Below the pieces are notes generated by a model, which searched no databases, was not told where the DNA came from, and saw nothing but the letters and a program-made list of their open reading frames with translations. A stretch of 64,000 nucleotides of DNA from an uncultured Bacilli bacterium (GTDB lineage: Bacteria > Bacillota_I > Bacilli_A > RF39 > UBA660): NCBI GenBank assembly GCA_947624505.1, contig CANQKO010000002.1, positions 10,097 through 74,096 on the forward strand, written 5' to 3'. Position 1 is the first letter of the stretch; each line of letters opens with the position of its first letter. This document shows, one piece after another, positions 16,204 through 39,083 of the stretch. Both the position numbers and the translations under genes were made by a program.

Positions 16204-16919
16204 TACTTATTACCCCTTTCAATAATACTTCTAACTATCATAGCATATGTAACTTTTGCCATATAGTAGATACTTTTAATAGGTGTAATAGATGATTTAC
16301 CATATTTTCTTTCGCGCATTTTTACTGGTATTTCTTTTACTTCATAACCATTTTTAATCACTTTAACAAGAGTCTCTGGTTCTGGATAATCATTGGGATA
16401 ATCACTAGCAAACAATTTAATAATATCTTGATCAACTGCCCTAAAACCTGATGTTACATCGTATATTTTTTCTTTAGTTGTCAGTTTTAAAACCATTGAT
16501 AATATTTTAATACCTAACTGTCTTATTTTTGTTGATTTAAATTCACTTAGATTATCAATATATCTTGAACCAATAGTCATTTTCACATCGCCATTTATAA
16601 TTGGCATTACTAAGTCATTTATATATGAAGCATCGTGTTGGCTATCGCCATCAAACTGAATAGCTATATCATAATCATTTTTATCGGCATAGATATAACC
16701 AGTTTGAACTGCTCCCCCAATTCCTAAATTATTAACTAAATTAATAACATTAAAATTATTTTCAACACAGATTTCTTTAGTTTTATCCGTTGAACCATCA
16801 TTAATAATTAGATAATCTAATTGATAAGTCTTATTTTGACAATTTTTTTCAATATCATTTATGGTATTAACAATATTTTCACTTTCATTATAAGCCGGAA
16901 TTATAACTAATACTTTCAT
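16203..16919 (-). CDS. GT2 polyprenyl-phosphate glycosyltransferase (Dpm1/GtrB-like)
   Basis: MKVLVIIPAYNESENI...INDGSTD GT-A motifs; 238 aa. Confidence 0.85.
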   Translation of the reverse strand: MKVLVIIPAYNESENIVNTINDIEKNCQNKTYQLDYLIINDGSTDKTKEICVENNFNVINLVNNLGIGGAVQTGYIYADKNDYDIAIQFDGDSQHDASYINDLVMPIINGDVKMTIGSRYIDNLSEFKSTKIRQLGIKILSMVLKLTTKEKIYDVTSGFRAVDQDIIKLFASDYPNDYPEPETLVKVIKNGYEVKEIPVKMRERKYGKSSITPIKSIYYMAKVTYAMIVRSIIERGNK

Positions 16920-17983
16920 TTGCCTTTCTCCTTTTTCTTTTTATGTTCATATAATATATCCGTTTTTAAAATAACAAATATTAATAAAAGTAATACCAAT
17001 AAATATAAAATTATAGCTTCTCTATTATCACCAATAACATAAATAATAGAAATGCTTGAGAAGATGATATTGATTAAATAAATGATAATAATACTTACTT
17101 TAGGAGAAAATTTTAATTTTAATAATTGATGATGAAAGTGTTCTTTATCTGGTGTACCAATACTTTCACCCTTTAATAGTCTTCTAAAGATAGCAAGAAT
17201 TGTATCAAATATCGGAATAGCTAAAATAGTTATTGGAATAACTAAAGATGTAAGCGTTGCTACTTTAAAACCTAAAAGAGCGATAACACTAATCATAAAG
17301 CCTAAAAATAAACTACCCGAATCACCCATAAATATTTTAGCTGGGGGAAAATTATTAACAAGAAACCCTAAAGTTGAACCAAGCATAATAAGAGATAAAA
17401 TAACATCTAATCCACCCATCTTATTTAAAACAAAAGCAATAATACCAATAGTTAAAAAATATATTGAACTAATTCCTCCCGCTAAACCATCTAAACCATC
17501 AATTAAATTAATGGCATTAGAAATAGCTACAATAAAAAATGTTGATAAAACATAACTTATTAACAAATTAAATTTTAAATGTAAACCTAAAAAAGTAATT
17601 TCACTAAAATAAACTTGACCATAAATTACCACAATTAAAGCTGAGATAATTTGCACTAAAAATTTATAACGAGCTTTGATGGGTTTAATATCATCAAAGA
17701 CCCCTACTAAAAAAATAATAAAAGAGCCAATTAATATCGAAATCATTTGAGTTGTAATTGAACCATATAAAATATAACCAATTAAAAAGGCACCATATAT
17801 AGCTAATCCACCTAATCTTGGCATTGGTTTTTTATGGATCTTCCTAGCATTAGGAATATCAATTGCCCCAATATGACTAGCTACCTTTTTAGCAATGGGT
17901 ATTAATGCTAAACTTACTACAAAGGTAACTAATATTATTTCCAATATGCTATGTCCATTTATAACTAAATTCATAACTACCAC
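16916..17983 (-). CDS. tagO: undecaprenyl-phosphate GlcNAc-1-phosphate transferase (MraY/WecA/TagO family)
   Basis: Polytopic membrane protein with DDIKPIKARYKF and NAINLIDGLDGLAGG motifs of polyprenyl-phosphate N-acetylhexosamine-1-P transferases; TATAAT and AGGTGG lie upstream. Confidence 0.9.
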   Translation of the reverse strand: MVVMNLVINGHSILEIILVTFVVSLALIPIAKKVASHIGAIDIPNARKIHKKPMPRLGGLAIYGAFLIGYILYGSITTQMISILIGSFIIFLVGVFDDIKPIKARYKFLVQIISALIVVIYGQVYFSEITFLGLHLKFNLLISYVLSTFFIVAISNAINLIDGLDGLAGGISSIYFLTIGIIAFVLNKMGGLDVILSLIMLGSTLGFLVNNFPPAKIFMGDSGSLFLGFMISVIALLGFKVATLTSLVIPITILAIPIFDTILAIFRRLLKGESIGTPDKEHFHHQLLKLKFSPKVSIIIIYLINIIFSSISIIYVIGDNREAIILYLLVLLLLIFVILKTDILYEHKKKKEKGK

Positions 17984-18241
17984 CTTAATTACTTCTTTTT
18001 TATTATATCGTATATCTTAAATTTTATAAAGAGTTTTATTTTTTACTTACCAAATCTCTAGAGAATTGGCATAAAACCTTAAAATTTCTTAAAAAATCAA
18101 TTAAAAAACTATTTACAAAAACAAAATAAATTGTTTAAATAAAGCTTGGGAAGATGTATTTAAGCGTTACCGAAAACTTTTTTATTTAAAGTCTTTTTGA
18201 CTTCGGTCAGGGGGTTTTGGATAGGAAGGTGGTGGGTGCCA

Positions 18242-18328
18242 ATGAATAAGAAATGTCGCGAAGATATATTTTTACTCATTGTTTTAATTTTAGTGTTGGC
18301 TCTGCTTATCCTAATAATTAAAAACTAA
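18242..18328 (+). CDS. 28-aa hydrophobic peptide (MNKKCREDIFLLIVLILVLALLILIIKN), type I toxin-like, copy 1
   Basis: A GGAAGGTGGTGGGTG SD sits 4-5 nt upstream of the ATG. A candidate -35 TTTACA (18112-18117) and -10 TTAAAT (18135-18140) lie upstream. The peptide has one TM helix with a charged N-terminus. Confidence 0.35.
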   Translation: MNKKCREDIFLLIVLILVLALLILIIKN

Positions 18329-18411
18329 CCCATTGGGTTAGTGACCTCTTAGGTAACGCTTATATGCGTCTTCCTATTTATAATTTTAGCATATTAATAT
18401 TTTTTATACAA
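18312..18411 (-). ncRNA. candidate cis-antisense small RNA overlapping the 3' end of the small ORF; a second copy lies at about 18708..18807
   Basis: The minus strand carries TTGTAT-17 nt-TAAAAT (plus-strand 18406-18411 and 18383-18388). It is followed by a CTAACCCAATGGGTTAG hairpin plus UUUUUAAUUAUU terminator (plus-strand 18312-18341). Confidence 0.3.
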
Positions 18412-18637
18412 TATTTTTAGGTTATCAATTTTTTAAATGTTCTTACCAAATCTCTAGAAAATTGGCATAAACTCTGGAAATTTCTTAAAAAATCAATTAA
18501 AAAACTATTTACAAAAACAAAATAAATTGTTTAAATAAAGCTTGGGAAGATGTATTTAAGCGTTACCGAAAACTTTTTTATTTAAAGTCTTTTTGACTTC
18601 GGTCAGGGGGTTTTGGATAGGAAGGTGGTGGGTGCCA

Positions 18638-18724
18638 ATGAATAAGAAATGTCGCGAAGATATATTTTTACTCATTGTTTTAATTTTAGTGTTGGCTCTG
18701 CTTATCCTAATAATTAAAAACTAA
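18638..18724 (+). CDS. 28-aa hydrophobic peptide, copy 2 (identical)
   Basis: Same ORF located 396 bp downstream. Confidence 0.35.
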   Translation: MNKKCREDIFLLIVLILVLALLILIIKN

Positions 18725-18809
18725 CCCATTGGGTTAGCAAACTCTTAGGTAACGCTTATATGCGTCTTCCTATTTATAATTTTAGCATATTAATATTTTT
18801 TATACAATA

Positions 18810-20318
18810 TTATTTTTTCTTTTTCCTATCATCTTCGAAAATATCATAAAATTCTTTAGTTTCTTCTTCATCTTTATTAACTATTTCTTTTACTTCATTA
18901 ATATCTTCTTTTATAATACTTTCTTCTATTTTTTCTTTATCTTCTTTTTGTTTCTTCTTTTTCTTTTTATCTTTCTTCTCTTCTTTAACATTATCTTTCT
19001 TTTTTTCTATTTCTTTTTTTAACTCGTCATTTTTCTTTAAGGTTTTCTTTTTACTAATATTAGTACTAATCAAAGATACTATAGCTAAAAATAAACCAAT
19101 TCCAAAAGCAATAATAATATAAAGATAAGTTTCATTTAATTGATTAAGTTCATCAATTCTTTCTTTATCATATAAAGTAAATGTTTTATTAATTGTATCA
19201 TAATTATAAAAATCTTTTTCACCAGTTTCAATGTTTAGGGCATAAACTACATAATTAGAAGAACTAGTACTTGCTTTAAAAACTTGATAACTATGGTCAT
19301 CTATTTCTTCTTGATACTTTGCTAATCCTGGTAATTCTTTATCATAATCTAATATAATTACTTTTAAACTGGTTCCTACAGTTTCAATATATTTATGATA
19401 ATTACCATTATCATAAATAAAGTTTTCTACTGTACCATCATCTTTTTTTAATCCTACTAAAGTATAATTTACTTTATCATTATAACAAGTAGGAATATTT
19501 AAGCCATTAATAACTACTTCACTTTCAGTAAATAATTGCGGACAAATATAATTATCTCTTAGTTTTATAACGGTATAATTTAAATTATCAATTTTAACAT
19601 TAATAGGATTTTGATCAATAACATTAACTAAAATGACATAAGTTTTTTCACTACCGTTTTCCGCTCTTACAACAACATTAATCGTATTTATGCCTTCTGT
19701 CACATCAATCGCACCATCACCACTAATACTAGCCTTGCTATCAGAGGCTGTAGCATTTATTTTAACTGAAGTAGTACCTTCTGGTACATTTACAGAATAA
19801 TTAGTTGTACTAGCACTAAAACTAGGACTTAAACTATAACCTTCAATACTTAAGCTTTTTAAATTATTATCTTTTGAATAACTATCTTCAAGTTGTTGTT
19901 GGGTAATTACTTTAATAGTTTTTTTACCTGCCGATACATCCATTTCATCCATATTATTATCATACACTAAAACACTTCCAATGGATAAATTAGTTGAACC
20001 AGTTTTGAGGGTTTTAAACGTAAAAGTATAACTTTTAGATTTAATGCCATCTTTAGTAGTAGCAGCAGAAACCATATAATTCCCGCCACCTTCTGCCGTA
20101 GATGATGTAAGTTGAAGATAATTCTTATCATAATTAAGTTGCATTTCCCAACTGCCAATTGCACTACTAGATGATAGTTTTACTGTTACCGTAACTTTTT
20201 TACCTACTACTACTTGACTACTAGAGGTAACACTTACATTAGCGGATGCGGCATTAACTACACAAGGAATAAATATAAGACTAATTAATGTTATAACAAA
20301 TAATTTTATTTTCTTCAT
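18810..20318 (-). CDS. type I membrane surface protein with a cadherin-like beta-sandwich domain and a K/E-rich cytoplasmic tail
   Basis: Signal peptide, an LSIEGYSLSPSFSASTTNYSVNVPEGTTSVKINATASD segment typical of the bacterial cadherin-like domain, a C-terminal TM helix and a poly-K/E tail. Confidence 0.65.
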   Translation of the reverse strand: MKKIKLFVITLISLIFIPCVVNAASANVSVTSSSQVVVGKKVTVTVKLSSSSAIGSWEMQLNYDKNYLQLTSSTAEGGGNYMVSAATTKDGIKSKSYTFTFKTLKTGSTNLSIGSVLVYDNNMDEMDVSAGKKTIKVITQQQLEDSYSKDNNLKSLSIEGYSLSPSFSASTTNYSVNVPEGTTSVKINATASDSKASISGDGAIDVTEGINTINVVVRAENGSEKTYVILVNVIDQNPINVKIDNLNYTVIKLRDNYICPQLFTESEVVINGLNIPTCYNDKVNYTLVGLKKDDGTVENFIYDNGNYHKYIETVGTSLKVIILDYDKELPGLAKYQEEIDDHSYQVFKASTSSSNYVVYALNIETGEKDFYNYDTINKTFTLYDKERIDELNQLNETYLYIIIAFGIGLFLAIVSLISTNISKKKTLKKNDELKKEIEKKKDNVKEEKKDKKKKKKQKEDKEKIEESIIKEDINEVKEIVNKDEEETKEFYDIFEDDRKKKK

Positions 20319-35837: not shown

Positions 35838-38800
35838 TTACTTACCAATTCGTTCACATTCGCCAACTTCAATTGTTAAGTTACCTTTAATAGATTTATC
35901 AATATTATTAGATTGGTCAAATTTCGAATAATTTCTAAATATTAATTCAATATCCCAAACTTGAGAAGTAAGATTATCATCATCAGCATCATTACTTATT
36001 TGAATATCTTCAATTACATATTCAGCATTTTCAATAATATCGATATCATATGTTTCTTTTACTTCATTAGAACTTTTAGCTTTATAGCCCTTTAATCTTA
36101 ATATCATTTGATTTTTTAATTCTTTAAGTTCTTCTGTATCAGAAATATATTGGTTGGTAAAGTTATTGGTTTCAGTCTTATATCTTAAGCTATATGTACA
36201 AGTAGTAATTTCAGCATTAGATTTTAATGAAACTTTAGCTTGTTTAGGGCCACTTGTGATTTCAATAAATTCTTTATCACCAACATTTTCTTTTGACATA
36301 TCGTCGCCCGTAATTTTTAAGTTAATATTATTTGCATTTTCAATAGTAAGTAATCCTTCTATTTCATCCTCGGTACAATTCTTATCACACTCACCATCGC
36401 CATTACTATCACATTTAGAATCGCACTTACCATCGTTTGGTTTACCGCCATTACCACCAGTATCACAGTTTAAATCACAAATACCATTGTTATCAGGGTC
36501 ACAATTTCGGTCACACTCACCGTCATTTGGCTTTTTACGATCAGATCCATCATCACAGTTTTTATCGCACTTGTTATCATCAGGAGTTCCACCAAATGAT
36601 CCATCATCGCAATTACTATCACAAACTCCATCACCGTCATCATCACAGTTTTTATCACATTTGCCATCACCGGCAGTTCCACCAAATGAACCATCATCAC
36701 AATTAGAATCACATTTACCATCATTAGGCTTACCATTATTTTTTCCATCGTCGCAATTAGAATCACATTTGCCGTCATTAGGAGTGCCACCGTTTTTGCC
36801 ATCGTCACAGTTTAAATCACATTTACCGTCACCAGGAGTGCCACCATTTGAACCGTCATCACAGTTACGATCACATTTGCCATCATTAGCTTCTTTTCCA
36901 TCAGATCCATCATCGCAGTTTTTATCACACTTATTATCACCAGCTTTGCCGCCGAATGAACCATCATCACAGTTTTTATCACATTTGCCATCACCGGCAG
37001 TGCCTCCATTGGATCCATCATCACAGTTTTTATCGCATTTGCCATCACCGGCAGTGCCTCCATTGGATCCATCATCACAGTTTTTATCACAAGTGTTATC
37101 ACCAGGAGTACCACCGAATGAGCCATCATCACAATTGCTATCGCAAATGCCATCATTTATTTTACCACCGTTTTTGCCATCATCACAGTTTTTATCGCAC
37201 TTGCCATCATTTGGCTTGCCACCGAATGAACCATCATCGCAGTTTTTATCACACTCGCCATCACCAGGAGTACCTTTATTAGAACCATCATCACAGTTTT
37301 TATCACATTTGCCATCACCTGTAGCACCACCAAATGATCCATCATCACAATTCTTATCGCATTTGCCATCACCAGGAGTGCCTTTATTAGATCCATCATC
37401 GCAGTTTTTATCACAAGTTTTATCACCAGCAGTACCATTATTAGAACCATCGTCACAATTCTTATCGCATTTGCCATCACCTGGAGCGCCACCAAATGAT
37501 CCATCATCACAGTTACGATCACATATATCATCACTAGCTTTGCCACCAAATGATCCATCATCACAATTGGAATCACAAATATCGTCATTTGGTTTGCCAC
37601 CGTTTTTACCATCATCACAGTTCTTATCGCATTTACCATCATTTGGTTTACCATTATTGGCACCATCATCACAGTTTAAATCGCAAATGCCATCATTAGA
37701 TTTACCATTATTGGTACCATTATCACAATTACGATCGCACTTATTATCATTTGGAGTTCTGCCAAATGATCCATCATCACAGTTACGATCACATTTACCA
37801 TCACCAGGAATACCACCATTAGATCCATCATCGCAATTTCTATCGCATTTGCCATCGCCTTTAACTCCACCATTAGATCCATCATCACAATTGCTATCAC
37901 ATTTACCATCATTAGGAGTGCCACCATTTTCGCCATTATCACAGTTTAGATGACATTTACCATCAGTTGTACAGTTACGATCACATACACCATTATTATC
38001 TGGATCACAATTTTTATCGCATTCACCATCACCATCGGTGTCACAATTCCTATCACATTCACCATCACCAGGAGTGCCACCAAATGAGCCATCATCACAA
38101 TTTAAATCGCATTTACCATCGCCATCAGTATCACAATTTTTACTACATTTGTCATTATCACCAACATAGCAATTTAAATCGCAATCACCATCACCATCAG
38201 TATCACAATTTTTATCACATTTACCATCGCCATCAGTATCACAATTTAAATCGCATTCACCATCTCCGTCGGTGTCACAATTTTTATAACATTTATCATC
38301 GTCACCAATATGGCAATTTAAATCACAATTGCCATCACCATCAGTATCACAATTTTTATCGCACTTATCATCGTTATCGGTATCACAATTTTTATCACAC
38401 TTACCGTCACCGGCATCGCCACCAAATGATCCATCATCACAATTTACATCACATTTGCCATCACCATTGGTGTCACAATTTTTATAACATTTATCATCGT
38501 CACCAACATAGCAATTTTTATCACACTCGTCATCACCAGCTTCGCCACCAAATGATCCATCATCACAATTCTTATCGCAAATACCATCACCAGCAGTACC
38601 GCTATCGGAGCCATCATCACAGTTTTTATCACATTTGCCATCGTTAGGTTTACCGCCATTAGATCCATCATCACAATTAATATCACAAATATTATCATCA
38701 GGAGTACCACCGAATGAACCTTTATCACAGTTACGATCACACTTACCATCGCCAATAGTTCCACCATTAGATCCATCATCACAGTTAGAGTCACACGTGT

Positions 38801-39083
38801 TATCGCCAATAGTTCCACCAAAACGACCATCGTCACAATTTAAATCACAACTACCATTACCATCATAGTCACAGTTTAAATCACATTTACCATCACCATC
38901 GACATCAACATTAATATTAGATGATCCAAAATTTTCACCCGCGCCAAATTGATTAAAGGTAAAAGTCGTAAGTATTAAAATAAAACATAAAAGCATTATG
39001 ATTAACATAATGACTATTGCCAATAACCTTCTTTTTTTTAATTCTGTATATTCAAAATTTTCTATTTGATTTTCTGTTTCCAT
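35838..39083 (-). CDS. giant membrane-anchored repeat protein with about 50 Cys/Asp-rich Ca-binding (thrombospondin type-3-like) repeats and a ~190-aa globular C-terminal domain
   Basis: N-terminal TM helix; 18-aa units CDxNCDDGS[FN]GGxxGDG[KE] and 12-aa units CDxNCDTDGDGx iterate from about aa 58 to 894. The DxDGDGxCDxNC pattern is TSP3-like. Confidence 0.75.
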   Translation of the reverse strand: METENQIENFEYTELKKRRLLAIVIMLIIMLLCFILILTTFTFNQFGAGENFGSSNINVDVDGDGKCDLNCDYDGNGSCDLNCDDGRFGGTIGDNTCDSNCDDGSNGGTIGDGKCDRNCDKGSFGGTPDDNICDINCDDGSNGGKPNDGKCDKNCDDGSDSGTAGDGICDKNCDDGSFGGEAGDDECDKNCYVGDDDKCYKNCDTNGDGKCDVNCDDGSFGGDAGDGKCDKNCDTDNDDKCDKNCDTDGDGNCDLNCHIGDDDKCYKNCDTDGDGECDLNCDTDGDGKCDKNCDTDGDGDCDLNCYVGDNDKCSKNCDTDGDGKCDLNCDDGSFGGTPGDGECDRNCDTDGDGECDKNCDPDNNGVCDRNCTTDGKCHLNCDNGENGGTPNDGKCDSNCDDGSNGGVKGDGKCDRNCDDGSNGGIPGDGKCDRNCDDGSFGRTPNDNKCDRNCDNGTNNGKSNDGICDLNCDDGANNGKPNDGKCDKNCDDGKNGGKPNDDICDSNCDDGSFGGKASDDICDRNCDDGSFGGAPGDGKCDKNCDDGSNNGTAGDKTCDKNCDDGSNKGTPGDGKCDKNCDDGSFGGATGDGKCDKNCDDGSNKGTPGDGECDKNCDDGSFGGKPNDGKCDKNCDDGKNGGKINDGICDSNCDDGSFGGTPGDNTCDKNCDDGSNGGTAGDGKCDKNCDDGSNGGTAGDGKCDKNCDDGSFGGKAGDNKCDKNCDDGSDGKEANDGKCDRNCDDGSNGGTPGDGKCDLNCDDGKNGGTPNDGKCDSNCDDGKNNGKPNDGKCDSNCDDGSFGGTAGDGKCDKNCDDDGDGVCDSNCDDGSFGGTPDDNKCDKNCDDGSDRKKPNDGECDRNCDPDNNGICDLNCDTGGNGGKPNDGKCDSKCDSNGDGECDKNCTEDEIEGLLTIENANNINLKITGDDMSKENVGDKEFIEITSGPKQAKVSLKSNAEITTCTYSLRYKTETNNFTNQYISDTEELKELKNQMILRLKGYKAKSSNEVKETYDIDIIENAEYVIEDIQISNDADDDNLTSQVWDIELIFRNYSKFDQSNNIDKSIKGNLTIEVGECERIGK
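36400..38910. repeat. in-frame 54-nt / 36-nt tandem coding repeats
   Basis: Near-perfect nucleotide periodicity underlies the protein repeats. It creates many spurious ORFs on other frames. Confidence 0.85.

Follow-up and report, generated by a model that had tools for sequence, protein, structure and literature searches.

Tandem copies of a putative type I toxin-antitoxin module belong to a multi-copy family in uncultured rabbit-gut Bacilli

Introduction

Type I toxin-antitoxin loci are almost never annotated, and the families known so far were described in a few cultured model bacteria. Here, we analyzed a duplicated 396-bp unit at positions 18046-18811 of a 64,000-nt stretch of DNA (the window) from contig CANQKO010000002.1 of an uncultured Bacilli bacterium (assembly GCA_947624505.1). 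Judged from its sequence and that of its relatives, each unit is probably a type I toxin-antitoxin module in which the gene of a small toxin is paired with a cis-antisense RNA. An earlier note on the window, made from the letters alone, had proposed this architecture, and each of its predicted elements survived the comparison of about 20 diverged copies.

T1TAdb holds 24 type I families (PMC8594479), and 13 type I antitoxin RNA families were found in Rfam at that time. In the Gram-positive families TxpA/RatA, BsrE-G-H, YonT and SprG, the antisense RNA is encoded on the 3' side and partly overlaps the mRNA, usually its open reading frame (ORF), and the key determinants in type I mRNAs are sequences complementary to the Shine-Dalgarno sequence (SD), called anti-SD, together with 5' stem-loops and 5'-3' long-distance interactions (PMC8594479). 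In bsrG/SR4, pairing of SR4 with the bsrG 3' end leads to decay by RNase III and to sequestration of the SD (PMC8309996). The module predicted here matches the T1TAdb layout, with the antisense RNA on the 3' side, and all of the listed mRNA determinants.

Like bsrG/SR4, bsrE/SR5 and txpA/RatA of Bacillus subtilis, the module would encode a small hydrophobic peptide on a short structured mRNA with a sequestered SD, and a convergent cis-antisense RNA that runs from downstream of the ORF over the 3' end of the mRNA. However, it showed no sequence or covariance-model similarity to these loci. The predicted antisense RNA, at ~57 nt, is much shorter than those of bsrG/SR4 and txpA/RatA; SR4 is ~180 nt and RatA ~220 nt long. 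In contrast to the bsrG/SR4 group, the antisense target includes one arm of a 23-bp helix that closes the mRNA, so that the antisense RNA mimics the 5' end of the mRNA. The peptide is also shorter (28-33 aa) with its charged end at the N-terminus, and the loci lie between housekeeping genes and not in prophages.

With hok/Sok of enterobacteria and aapA1/IsoA1 of Helicobacter pylori the module shares a predicted inert full-length mRNA that is closed 5'-3' and has its SD masked by an anti-SD. It differs from both in having the antisense region at the 3' end of the mRNA and in lacking any sequence relation to them, and the hok leader ORF (mok) is absent. Fst/RNAII (par) and SprA1/SprA1as of enterococci and staphylococci are, like the module, convergent Firmicute pairs that overlap at the 3' end, and their toxins are single helices of ~30 aa (PMC8594479, PMC8309996), but the pairing that matters for their function takes place at the 5' end of the mRNA, away from the overlap (PMC8594479). 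The module peptide matched none of the Pfam and NCBIfam toxin families. Its charged N-terminus is the reverse of the arrangement in Fst, where the N-terminus is hydrophobic and the C-terminus charged. Since the layout fits Gram-positive type I loci and there was no sequence or model similarity to known families, we regard the module as a new family of a known class. By sequence comparison, the family is previously undescribed and multi-copy, is carried by uncultured rabbit-gut Bacilli and has the architecture of the known type I class.

Results

Tandem Repeats Finder described the array as a 396-bp unit in 1.9 copies with 97% matches and 0 indels, in agreement with the tandem duplication with few substitutions that the earlier note had reported. 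Pairwise alignment of the two window copies (copy A on the left, copy B on the right) showed eight differing positions, five of them upstream of the sense promoter and three just past the hairpin at the end of the ORF. The latter three (TGAC at 18342-18345 in copy A, CAAA at 18738-18741 in copy B) fall in a hypervariable linker. A 32-nt probe over the SD and the start codon matched in the window only at copies A and B. A two-copy array with equal spacing was present in both of two independent ENA metagenome assemblies (L001 and L002), on contigs that also encode the neighbouring glycosyltransferase, and in a 98.7%-identical strain (L003) copy A runs into copy B. The duplication is therefore real and no assembly artefact. 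The linker variants were redistributed among the assemblies, with TGAC in both copies of L001 and CAAA in both copies of L002, which suggests gene conversion between tandem copies, or strain mixing in the assembly.

Because the 396-bp unit had no match in plasmid and phage collections (blastn, distant mode) and the ORF, searched in its 43-aa TTG-extended form, had none in the protein database, relatives were sought via homologues of the neighbouring glycosyltransferase. One contig of a rabbit-gut metagenome-assembled genome (MAG; L004, GCA_947628375.1) had a 92% identical glycosyltransferase and one 71%-identical module at the same site, and three contigs with glycosyltransferase homologues 85-89% identical (L006, L008 and L010) had no module there. 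The best-conserved block in the alignment of the window with L004 was the 3' arm of the long-range helix described below, which also ranks first among the blocks of the family in conservation, with a majority-base frequency of 0.96. Scanning genome contigs with the 3'-arm pattern GGTAACGCTN{1,5}TGCGTCTTCCTA gave 20 loci in five MAGs labelled 'uncultured Bacilli bacterium' from one rabbit study, up to eight per MAG and many of them at contig ends. An nhmmer profile run over all retrieved loci also picked up copies without this exact pattern, namely L031b, the divergent L016b and a fragment in L023. In total, the window organism and five related rabbit-gut MAGs held about 20 distinct full-length and 6-7 partial copies, with at least eight module loci in one MAG. 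Tandem or adjacent copies were found in the window, L027 and L031. The further copies that the earlier note had proposed to look for thus exist, and the family is multi-copy and often tandem.

Each window copy has on the plus strand an ORF of 28 codons from ATG to TAA (18242-18328 in copy A, 18638-18724 in copy B) for the identical peptide MNKKCREDIFLLIVLILVLALLILIIKN, in which a charged N-terminus precedes one hydrophobic run of 18 residues, long enough for a transmembrane segment. This is the peptide that had been read from the window before. An ORF of 28-33 aa was intact and in register in 19 of the 20 full copies, starting with ATG in 18 and with TTG in one (L027b), and the one full copy without an intact ORF, L030, had a frameshift and had lost the SD. 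The earlier note had held that a repeat found at many sites without the ORF would speak against a toxin-antitoxin locus; many sites were found, but their full copies carry the ORF. The peptides follow the plan M-x-[KDN]-[KR]-x-R-x-x-[IFL]-x-L-x-I-[VI]-[LF]-[IM]-[LT]-x-L-[AT]-[LM]-L-[IL]-[LQ]-x-[IL]-K and have two C-terminal forms, with the stop codon either just ahead of the hairpin or past its loop (...ITNPVG). Across 138 pairs the median ratio of non-synonymous to synonymous change (dN/dS) was 0.20, with proportions of synonymous (pS) and non-synonymous (pN) differences of 0.60 and 0.21 (Nei-Gojobori, NG86), and 18, 11 and 23 of the 26 columns varied at codon positions 1, 2 and 3, respectively. 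The window copy and L027b differ in nine synonymous codons and one non-synonymous codon. In L003 a 1-nt insertion breaks the 43-aa TTG-extended frame and leaves the ATG ORF unharmed, so the ATG is the real start. Judged from these substitutions, the ORF of 28-33 aa is a gene under purifying selection. As in type I loci, the module thus has a small ORF (<~60 aa) whose hydrophobic, membrane-type product is conserved at the protein level.

The mRNA of the peptide is predicted to start from a plus-strand promoter at 18112-18140 in copy A, where TTTACA (18112-18117) and TTAAAT (18135-18140, in the context TGnTTAAAT) are separated by 17 nt, and copy B has an identical promoter at 18508-18536. Both this promoter and that of the antisense RNA carry an extended -10 element (TGn). 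Among 18 non-redundant copies, the majority-base frequency of the sense promoter was 0.97 in the -35 element, 0.93 in the -10 element and 0.81 in the spacer. The predicted mRNA of copy A is ~230-240 nt long (18148-18388, plus strand), with putative ends, and that of copy B (18544-18784) is the same apart from three nucleotides in the linker at 18738-18741 and folded at -87.6 kcal/mol. The plus-strand RNA from 18148 to 18392 folded at -88.8 kcal/mol (z = -8.6; none of 200 shuffles was as good) and the minus strand of the same segment at -58.1 kcal/mol, an asymmetry of ~30 kcal/mol that is due to G-U pairs.

In the predicted fold of copy A, a 5' arm (18148-18171) pairs with a 3' arm (18352-18374) that also serves as the template for the 5' end of the antisense RNA. 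The resulting closing helix joins GGAAGAUGUAUUUAAGCGUUACC (18149-18171) to GGUAACGCUUAUAUGCGUCUUCC (18352-18374) over 23 bp, with two G-U pairs and one U-U mismatch, and has a duplex energy of -32.9 kcal/mol. The earlier note had described this complementarity as 10 nt long; the pairing was upheld and the length was corrected. Between the arms, the hairpin of the 5' untranslated region (5'-UTR; 18176-18234) pairs the U-rich anti-SD (18176-18191) with the first half of the extended SD AGGAAGGUGGUG (18223-18234) and carries an apical UUCG stem-loop (18193-18214). The SD AGAAAGGUGGUG, 8-9 nt from the AUG, matches the complement of the 3' end of Bacilli 16S rRNA at 11 of 12 positions. Partition-function folding gave the SD an unpaired probability of 0.21-0.26 in every folding state, in line with the sequestration of the SD that folding of the plus transcript had been proposed to check. 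The AUG had a predicted unpaired probability of 0.003-0.03 once ~150 nt were transcribed, and the 5' arm was predicted to be 94% paired in the full-length RNA. When the antisense target was masked, the 5' arm had an unpaired probability of 0.43, yet the SD and the AUG stayed closed.

The consensus structure of the 18 copies (RNAalifold) had 46 pairs in seven helices, among them the closing helix in two segments, two helices internal to the ORF and the hairpin at the end of the ORF. In another helix the U-rich strand CUUUUUUA pairs with UAGRAAGG, the 5' half of the extended SD. The start codon lies in a helix of CAAUGA with UCAUUG in codons 12-14, which shows AU-to-UA compensation; for example, an A-to-U change at position -2 of the AUG is matched by a synonymous Ile change from ATT to ATA. 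The consensus pairs were formed in 97.3% of cells, compared to 36-55% with slid partners, and nine pairs had double-sided changes, compared to 0-3 in the slid controls. The covariation score was 0.194, against <=0.067 in the slid controls, and none of 500 shuffles reached 0.194. The two segments of the closing helix were 100% and 97.6% paired with one double-sided change, and the anti-SD/SD helix was 95.8% paired with two compensatory cells. In the divergent L016b the closing helix was preserved via changes in both arms (e.g. A-U to G-C). The apical hairpin of the 5'-UTR, with a majority-base frequency of 0.60, varies by compensation or replacement, as in L004, where GAC/GUC in the stem is replaced by AUAU/AUAU. 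The least conserved part (0.57) was the linker between the terminator and the 3' arm, which holds the only difference between the window copies inside the RNA. Each copy took the common architecture when folded singly, and six mRNA helices together contained 101 G-U cells against four A-C cells, so these helices are plus-strand RNA structures. Thus, the predicted mRNA has the cis elements that block translation in type I systems, namely anti-SD/SD pairing, a 5' stem-loop and 5'-3' long-distance pairing. A role of the UUCG hairpin of the 5'-UTR as a plus-strand attenuator was considered and rejected; other subfamilies have the U-run in the stem and the hairpin swapped.

On the minus strand, a predicted antisense promoter lies at 18383-18411 in copy A, with TTGTAT (18411-18406) 17 nt from TAAAAT (18388-18383, in the context TGnTAAAAT). 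In copy B it lies at 18779-18807, where the -35 element is 2 nt from the stop codon (18812-18810) of a convergent gene for a 502-aa protein. Its majority-base frequency among the 18 copies was 0.98 in the -35 element, 0.97 in the -10 element and 0.81 in the spacer. In the alignment of copies the TG of the extended -10 element was kept, with G, A or C as the next base, and TTG was retained in every variant of the -35 element (TTGTAT, TTGAAT and TTGCAT). By its sequence the antisense promoter is nearer to consensus than the sense promoter, with A at position 2 and T at position 6 of TAAAAT as well as the TGn, which would fit an antitoxin in excess.

The predicted antisense RNA of ~57 nt (18319-18375 in copy A, 18715-18771 in copy B, both minus strand, with approximate ends) consists of a 5' hairpin and a terminator hairpin. 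A terminator scan flagged the intrinsic terminator of copy A at 18320-18341 (minus strand), with the hairpin CTAACCCAATGGGTTAG at 18341-18325 and a U-run at 18324-18320; the hairpin of copy B is at 18737-18721. The scan gave four terminator-like sites where 0.4 were expected, namely the two ORF-end hairpins (minus strand) and the two 5'-UTR hairpins (plus strand). The antisense terminator overlaps the stop codon, as had been claimed, together with the three codons before it, and its U-run is encoded by the conserved ...I-K codons. Among 24 copies, the ORF-end hairpin was more stable on the minus strand in 23 (mean -11.8 versus -9.2 kcal/mol) and had 41 G-U pairs on the minus strand versus none on the plus strand, and in most copies a minus-strand U-run comes next. 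On the plus strand the sole non-Watson-Crick cells were A-C (six cells) or other mismatches. By this pattern of substitutions, the ORF-end hairpin evolves as a minus-strand terminator. The module thus carries two opposite strand-specific structural signals, as would be expected of a convergent pair of sense and antisense RNAs.

The antisense RNA folded at -19.4 kcal/mol (z -4.3). In terms of thermodynamics only, its full duplex with the 3' region of the mRNA, at -104 kcal/mol, compares with -33 kcal/mol for the 5'/3' helix. Over the first 23 nt of each RNA, the 5' end of the antisense RNA (GGAAGACGCAUAUAAGCGUUACC) is a near-repeat of the 5' end of the mRNA (GGAAGAUGUAUUUAAGCGUUACC), because both pair with the 3' arm. 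At the sequence level, the module thus has the antisense gene of a type I system, complementary to the mRNA and with its own predicted promoter and terminator.

In the window, the array sits between two minus-strand genes, one at 18810-20318 for a 502-aa cadherin-like, transmembrane protein and one at 16916-17974 for a family-4 (GT4) glycosyltransferase, the first gene of a polysaccharide operon. The family as a whole occupies at least 14 distinct sites beside unrelated genes (thiI in four MAGs, valS-like in two, enolase-like, pyrG-like and secG-ftsH-tilS), which are a mix of conserved orthologous sites and of gains and losses. Presence at an orthologous site is sporadic, with two copies in the window, one in L004 and none in L010. 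Multi-copy and often tandem occurrence with sporadic presence is typical of type I loci. Five remnants (L030, L023a, L023b, L027a and L031a) are antisense-only or have a dead ORF; in such decayed copies the ORF or the whole 5' part is gone and the antisense promoter, the 3' arm and the terminator are retained.

At 13 of 14 sites (binomial p = 0.002) the gene to the right of the module converges on the peptide gene, which there faces against local transcription. The stop codon of this neighbour is -2 to ~260 nt from the right end of the module and within 10 nt of it at about half of the sites, and a direct TAA-TTGTAT fusion occurs at four unrelated genes. In L010, with a glycosyltransferase 85% identical to that of the window, the empty site (L010:9890-10015, corresponding to 17965-18850 of the window) has 66 intergenic nucleotides with an ordinary hairpin-plus-U terminator. 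In the window and in L004 this ordinary terminator is gone, and the stop codon of the upstream gene adjoins the antisense promoter. Thus, the module took over the terminator of the upstream gene. The L010 terminator GGAAGAA/TTCTTCC was rejected as an ancestor of the module arms; the likeness is a 7-nt coincidence, and the arms occur in all copies at unrelated sites.

A palindrome marks the left limit of the repeated module in all 20 full copies. In copy A it is TTACCAAATCTCTAGAGAATTGGCA (18047-18071), and pairwise alignment places it in copy B, with one mismatch, at 18443-18467 (AGAAAATT). It is 24-28 nt long at the left edge of every module copy, with a nearly invariant core TCTCTAGAGA and outer positions at which C-G and G-C replace each other. 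In eight copies, one position is A-C on the plus strand (G-U on the minus strand). On the minus strand of some loci the palindrome is followed by a U-rich run and then by the promoter of the next gene, and at L018:279-294 a second copy of the palindrome stands alone upstream of another gene. It may serve as an operator, a backstop terminator or a recombination site. A LexA/Cheo box was rejected for its wrong spacing.

Searches of other collections gave no further relatives. The family peptides had no significant match in PHROG (weak E-values of 0.63 and 0.72 only) or among PDB sequences. Two patterns had 0 matches each in viral contigs, and exact patterns for the SD region and the 3' arm had 0 matches each in JGI metagenome contigs, so the family is undetectable there by exact patterns. 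Rfam gave no match at the gathering score over the whole 64-kb window and no riboswitch or leader family in the module, and no tRNA was found in the window.

Discussion

The features described above suggest the following mechanism. A weak extended -10 promoter would produce an mRNA of ~235 nt that encodes the 28-aa peptide with its single hydrophobic run of transmembrane length. This mRNA would be translationally inert as made, with the U-rich anti-SD on the 5' half of the very strong SD AGGAAGGUGGUG and the AUG locked in a helix with codons 12-14. Its first and last 23 nt would pair and close the molecule so that both ends are buried. A stronger extended -10 promoter, ~10 nt beyond the 3' arm, would produce the ~57-nt antisense RNA, fully complementary to the 3' arm, the hypervariable linker, the hairpin and the last codons and ending at the intrinsic terminator. 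The antisense RNA could bind the 3' region of the mRNA either while the mRNA is nascent or by displacing the 5' arm that it mimics, and the duplex could be degraded by an RNase III-type activity as in bsrG/SR4 and txpA/RatA, so that the peptide is kept unmade. Upon loss of the unstable antisense RNA, the stable closed mRNA would be activated and the membrane peptide would harm the cell.

Several points weigh against this interpretation. The label 'toxin-antitoxin' follows from the architecture, as the toxicity of the peptide and both RNAs are predicted only, and a small membrane peptide can be conserved without being toxic. The only hints at toxicity are indirect, from the copies with a dead ORF that retain the antisense gene and from the fixed orientation against neighbouring transcription. 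A generic sigma-70 scan flagged neither the sense nor the antisense promoter, because TTAAAT does not have the A at position 2 that is usually critical, and TTGTAT agrees with the consensus at only three of six positions. The promoter calls therefore rest on conservation among the copies and not on consensus strength. What the earlier note had said of the two promoters was right as to the hexamers, which are present, conserved and joined to extended -10 elements, and did not hold as to their strength. There is no canonical terminator on the plus strand of the module, and the 3' end of the mRNA was assumed to lie after the 5'/3' helix in a U-rich run. The SD and the AUG are sequestered in all predicted folding states, so that these folds do not account for translation of the peptide. 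All copies come from ~6 closely related MAG species of one rabbit-gut study and include paralogues that are not independent of each other, so fewer events took place than the covariation counts suggest. Since the pattern scan used the 3' arm, the invariance of that arm is partly forced, and this ascertainment also favours antisense-only remnants, so that their excess over toxin-only remnants should not be taken at face value. In the databases, Rfam (E <=10, region 17000-20000) gave no toxin-antitoxin family and nothing relevant, Pfam (E <=10, four family peptides) gave no match, and NCBIfam gave only non-significant, unrelated matches to the family peptides, such as phospholamban at E 0.03.

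The two-RNA architecture could be real and the peptide a benign small membrane protein, for instance one that regulates a membrane complex, with its synthesis adjusted by a cis-antisense RNA. The evidence from the ORF, the RNA structures and the promoters has no bearing on toxicity, and the peptide is unmatched to any known toxin family. We nevertheless consider a benign peptide unlikely, given the several predicted layers of silencing (anti-SD, AUG helix and 5'/3' closure), the many paralogues per genome with tandem copies, the decayed copies that retain the antisense gene only and the orientation of the peptide gene against the flow of the neighbouring genes. These are hallmarks of toxic peptides and are hard to motivate for a harmless protein (PMC8594479, PMC8309996). 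It is much less likely that the module is a mobile, non-autonomous intergenic repeat, similar to miniature inverted-repeat transposable elements or repetitive extragenic palindromic sequences, with GGAAGA...TCTTCC as terminal repeats and an incidental ORF. The dispersal over at least 14 sites, the sharp boundaries, contigs that often break at or near the module, the empty site in L010 and a copy in L025 that is 94% identical to the window copy yet lies at another site would all fit such an element. An incidental ORF is contradicted by purifying selection, and the inverted arms do not form the ends of the unit but lie ~100 nt inside its left boundary and ~40 nt inside its right one. The mismatches in the arms are compatible with G-U pairing on one strand only and the fold energy is strand-asymmetric, so the arms point to RNA and not to DNA ends. 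There was no target-site duplication at 19 junctions or in the comparison of filled and empty sites, and no transposase is associated with the module. Mobility and toxin-antitoxin function are not mutually exclusive.

The array could also be read as a minus-strand regulatory leader or terminator cassette that ends transcription of the 502-aa gene and supplies the GT4 operon with an attenuator or promoter region, with coincidental features on the plus strand. Both neighbours are on the minus strand with two minus-strand terminators between them, L010 has an ordinary terminator at this place, and at 13 of 14 sites a minus-strand gene has its stop codon next to the module. We think this highly improbable, since the module also lies beside unrelated genes (thiI, valS-like, enolase-like, pyrG-like and secG-ftsH), most of its conserved structure is specific to the plus strand by the G-U and A-C counts (101 versus four), the plus-strand ORF is conserved, and no riboswitch or leader family was matched. 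Service as a terminator for the upstream gene is probably a side effect and not the purpose. Least credible of all is that the assembly made a tandem duplication out of an element with a single copy. The sequence comes from a metagenome and repeats of the family break contigs elsewhere, but the same two-copy array and spacing in L001 and L002, the junction of copy A with copy B in L003 and the eight differences between the window copies speak against it.

Within the type I interpretation, a more specific and rather doubtful idea is that the module is a self-contained intergenic cassette that inserts, or is tolerated only, at the stop codon of a host gene and in one orientation, and that couples toxin control to transcription of the neighbour. 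The terminator of the host gene would then be replaced by the antisense terminator, and read-through would supply the antitoxin sequence as a 3' UTR. The antisense RNA, as a mimic of the 5' arm of the mRNA, would open the closing helix by strand displacement. The idea is compatible with the single orientation at 13 of 14 sites, the four TAA-TTGTAT fusions, the terminator in L010 and the likeness between the 5' ends of the antisense RNA and the mRNA.

The module family presents no new principle. It was read from the raw sequence of uncultured gut Bacilli with 26% G+C, and about 20 natural paralogues and orthologues reveal, without experiments, a predicted RNA logic. In it, two RNAs overlap and show opposite strand-specific covariation, translation is masked in three layers, and the antisense RNA would act on an arm of the closing helix. 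That the antisense RNA would target one arm of this helix is the particular twist of the family and makes it a clean test case for 3'-end antisense pairing versus 5'/3' closure. A covariance model with which to annotate such loci in gut metagenomes is readily obtained from the alignment, and the family explains assembly breaks at module sites in these genomes.

Additional observations

The window has a G+C content of 25.6%, and nearly every long ORF is on the minus strand. The neighbours of the module in the window include dockerin/SH3 and cadherin-like surface proteins and a large operon for polysaccharide synthesis. At 35838-39083 the mechanical ORF list has a 1081-aa minus-strand ORF overlapped by plus-strand ORFs of 599 aa and 226 aa, which is probably a compositional effect.

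In the left flanks of L013, L014, L018, L019, L021, L024, L025 and L026, a divergent multi-copy gene lies beside the module (e.g. L025:5604-5840). Its product starts with MNLLEIIKNLFKHHKINTNKELVRP... or MKIIDYIKNLFKHKEINTNG..., and each contig ends within the first ~80 codons. The form starting MNLLEIIKN... had no significant Pfam match (E 0.17 and 0.65) and only one fragmentary database match. Possibly the gene belongs to a larger unit that is repeated or mobile. Between the module and this gene, L018 has a 228-aa minus-strand ORF (L018:336-1022) with the Fic motif HPFYDGNGRTAR, seen by eye, and with its own duplicated segment of palindrome plus promoter. Instead of the module, the region upstream of the glycosyltransferase in a further related MAG has bAvd, an RVT_1 reverse transcriptase and an AAA_14/DUF4143 ATPase (L008:525-2606 and L009:369-2450), and the set of bAvd and RVT_1 genes looks like a diversity-generating retroelement.

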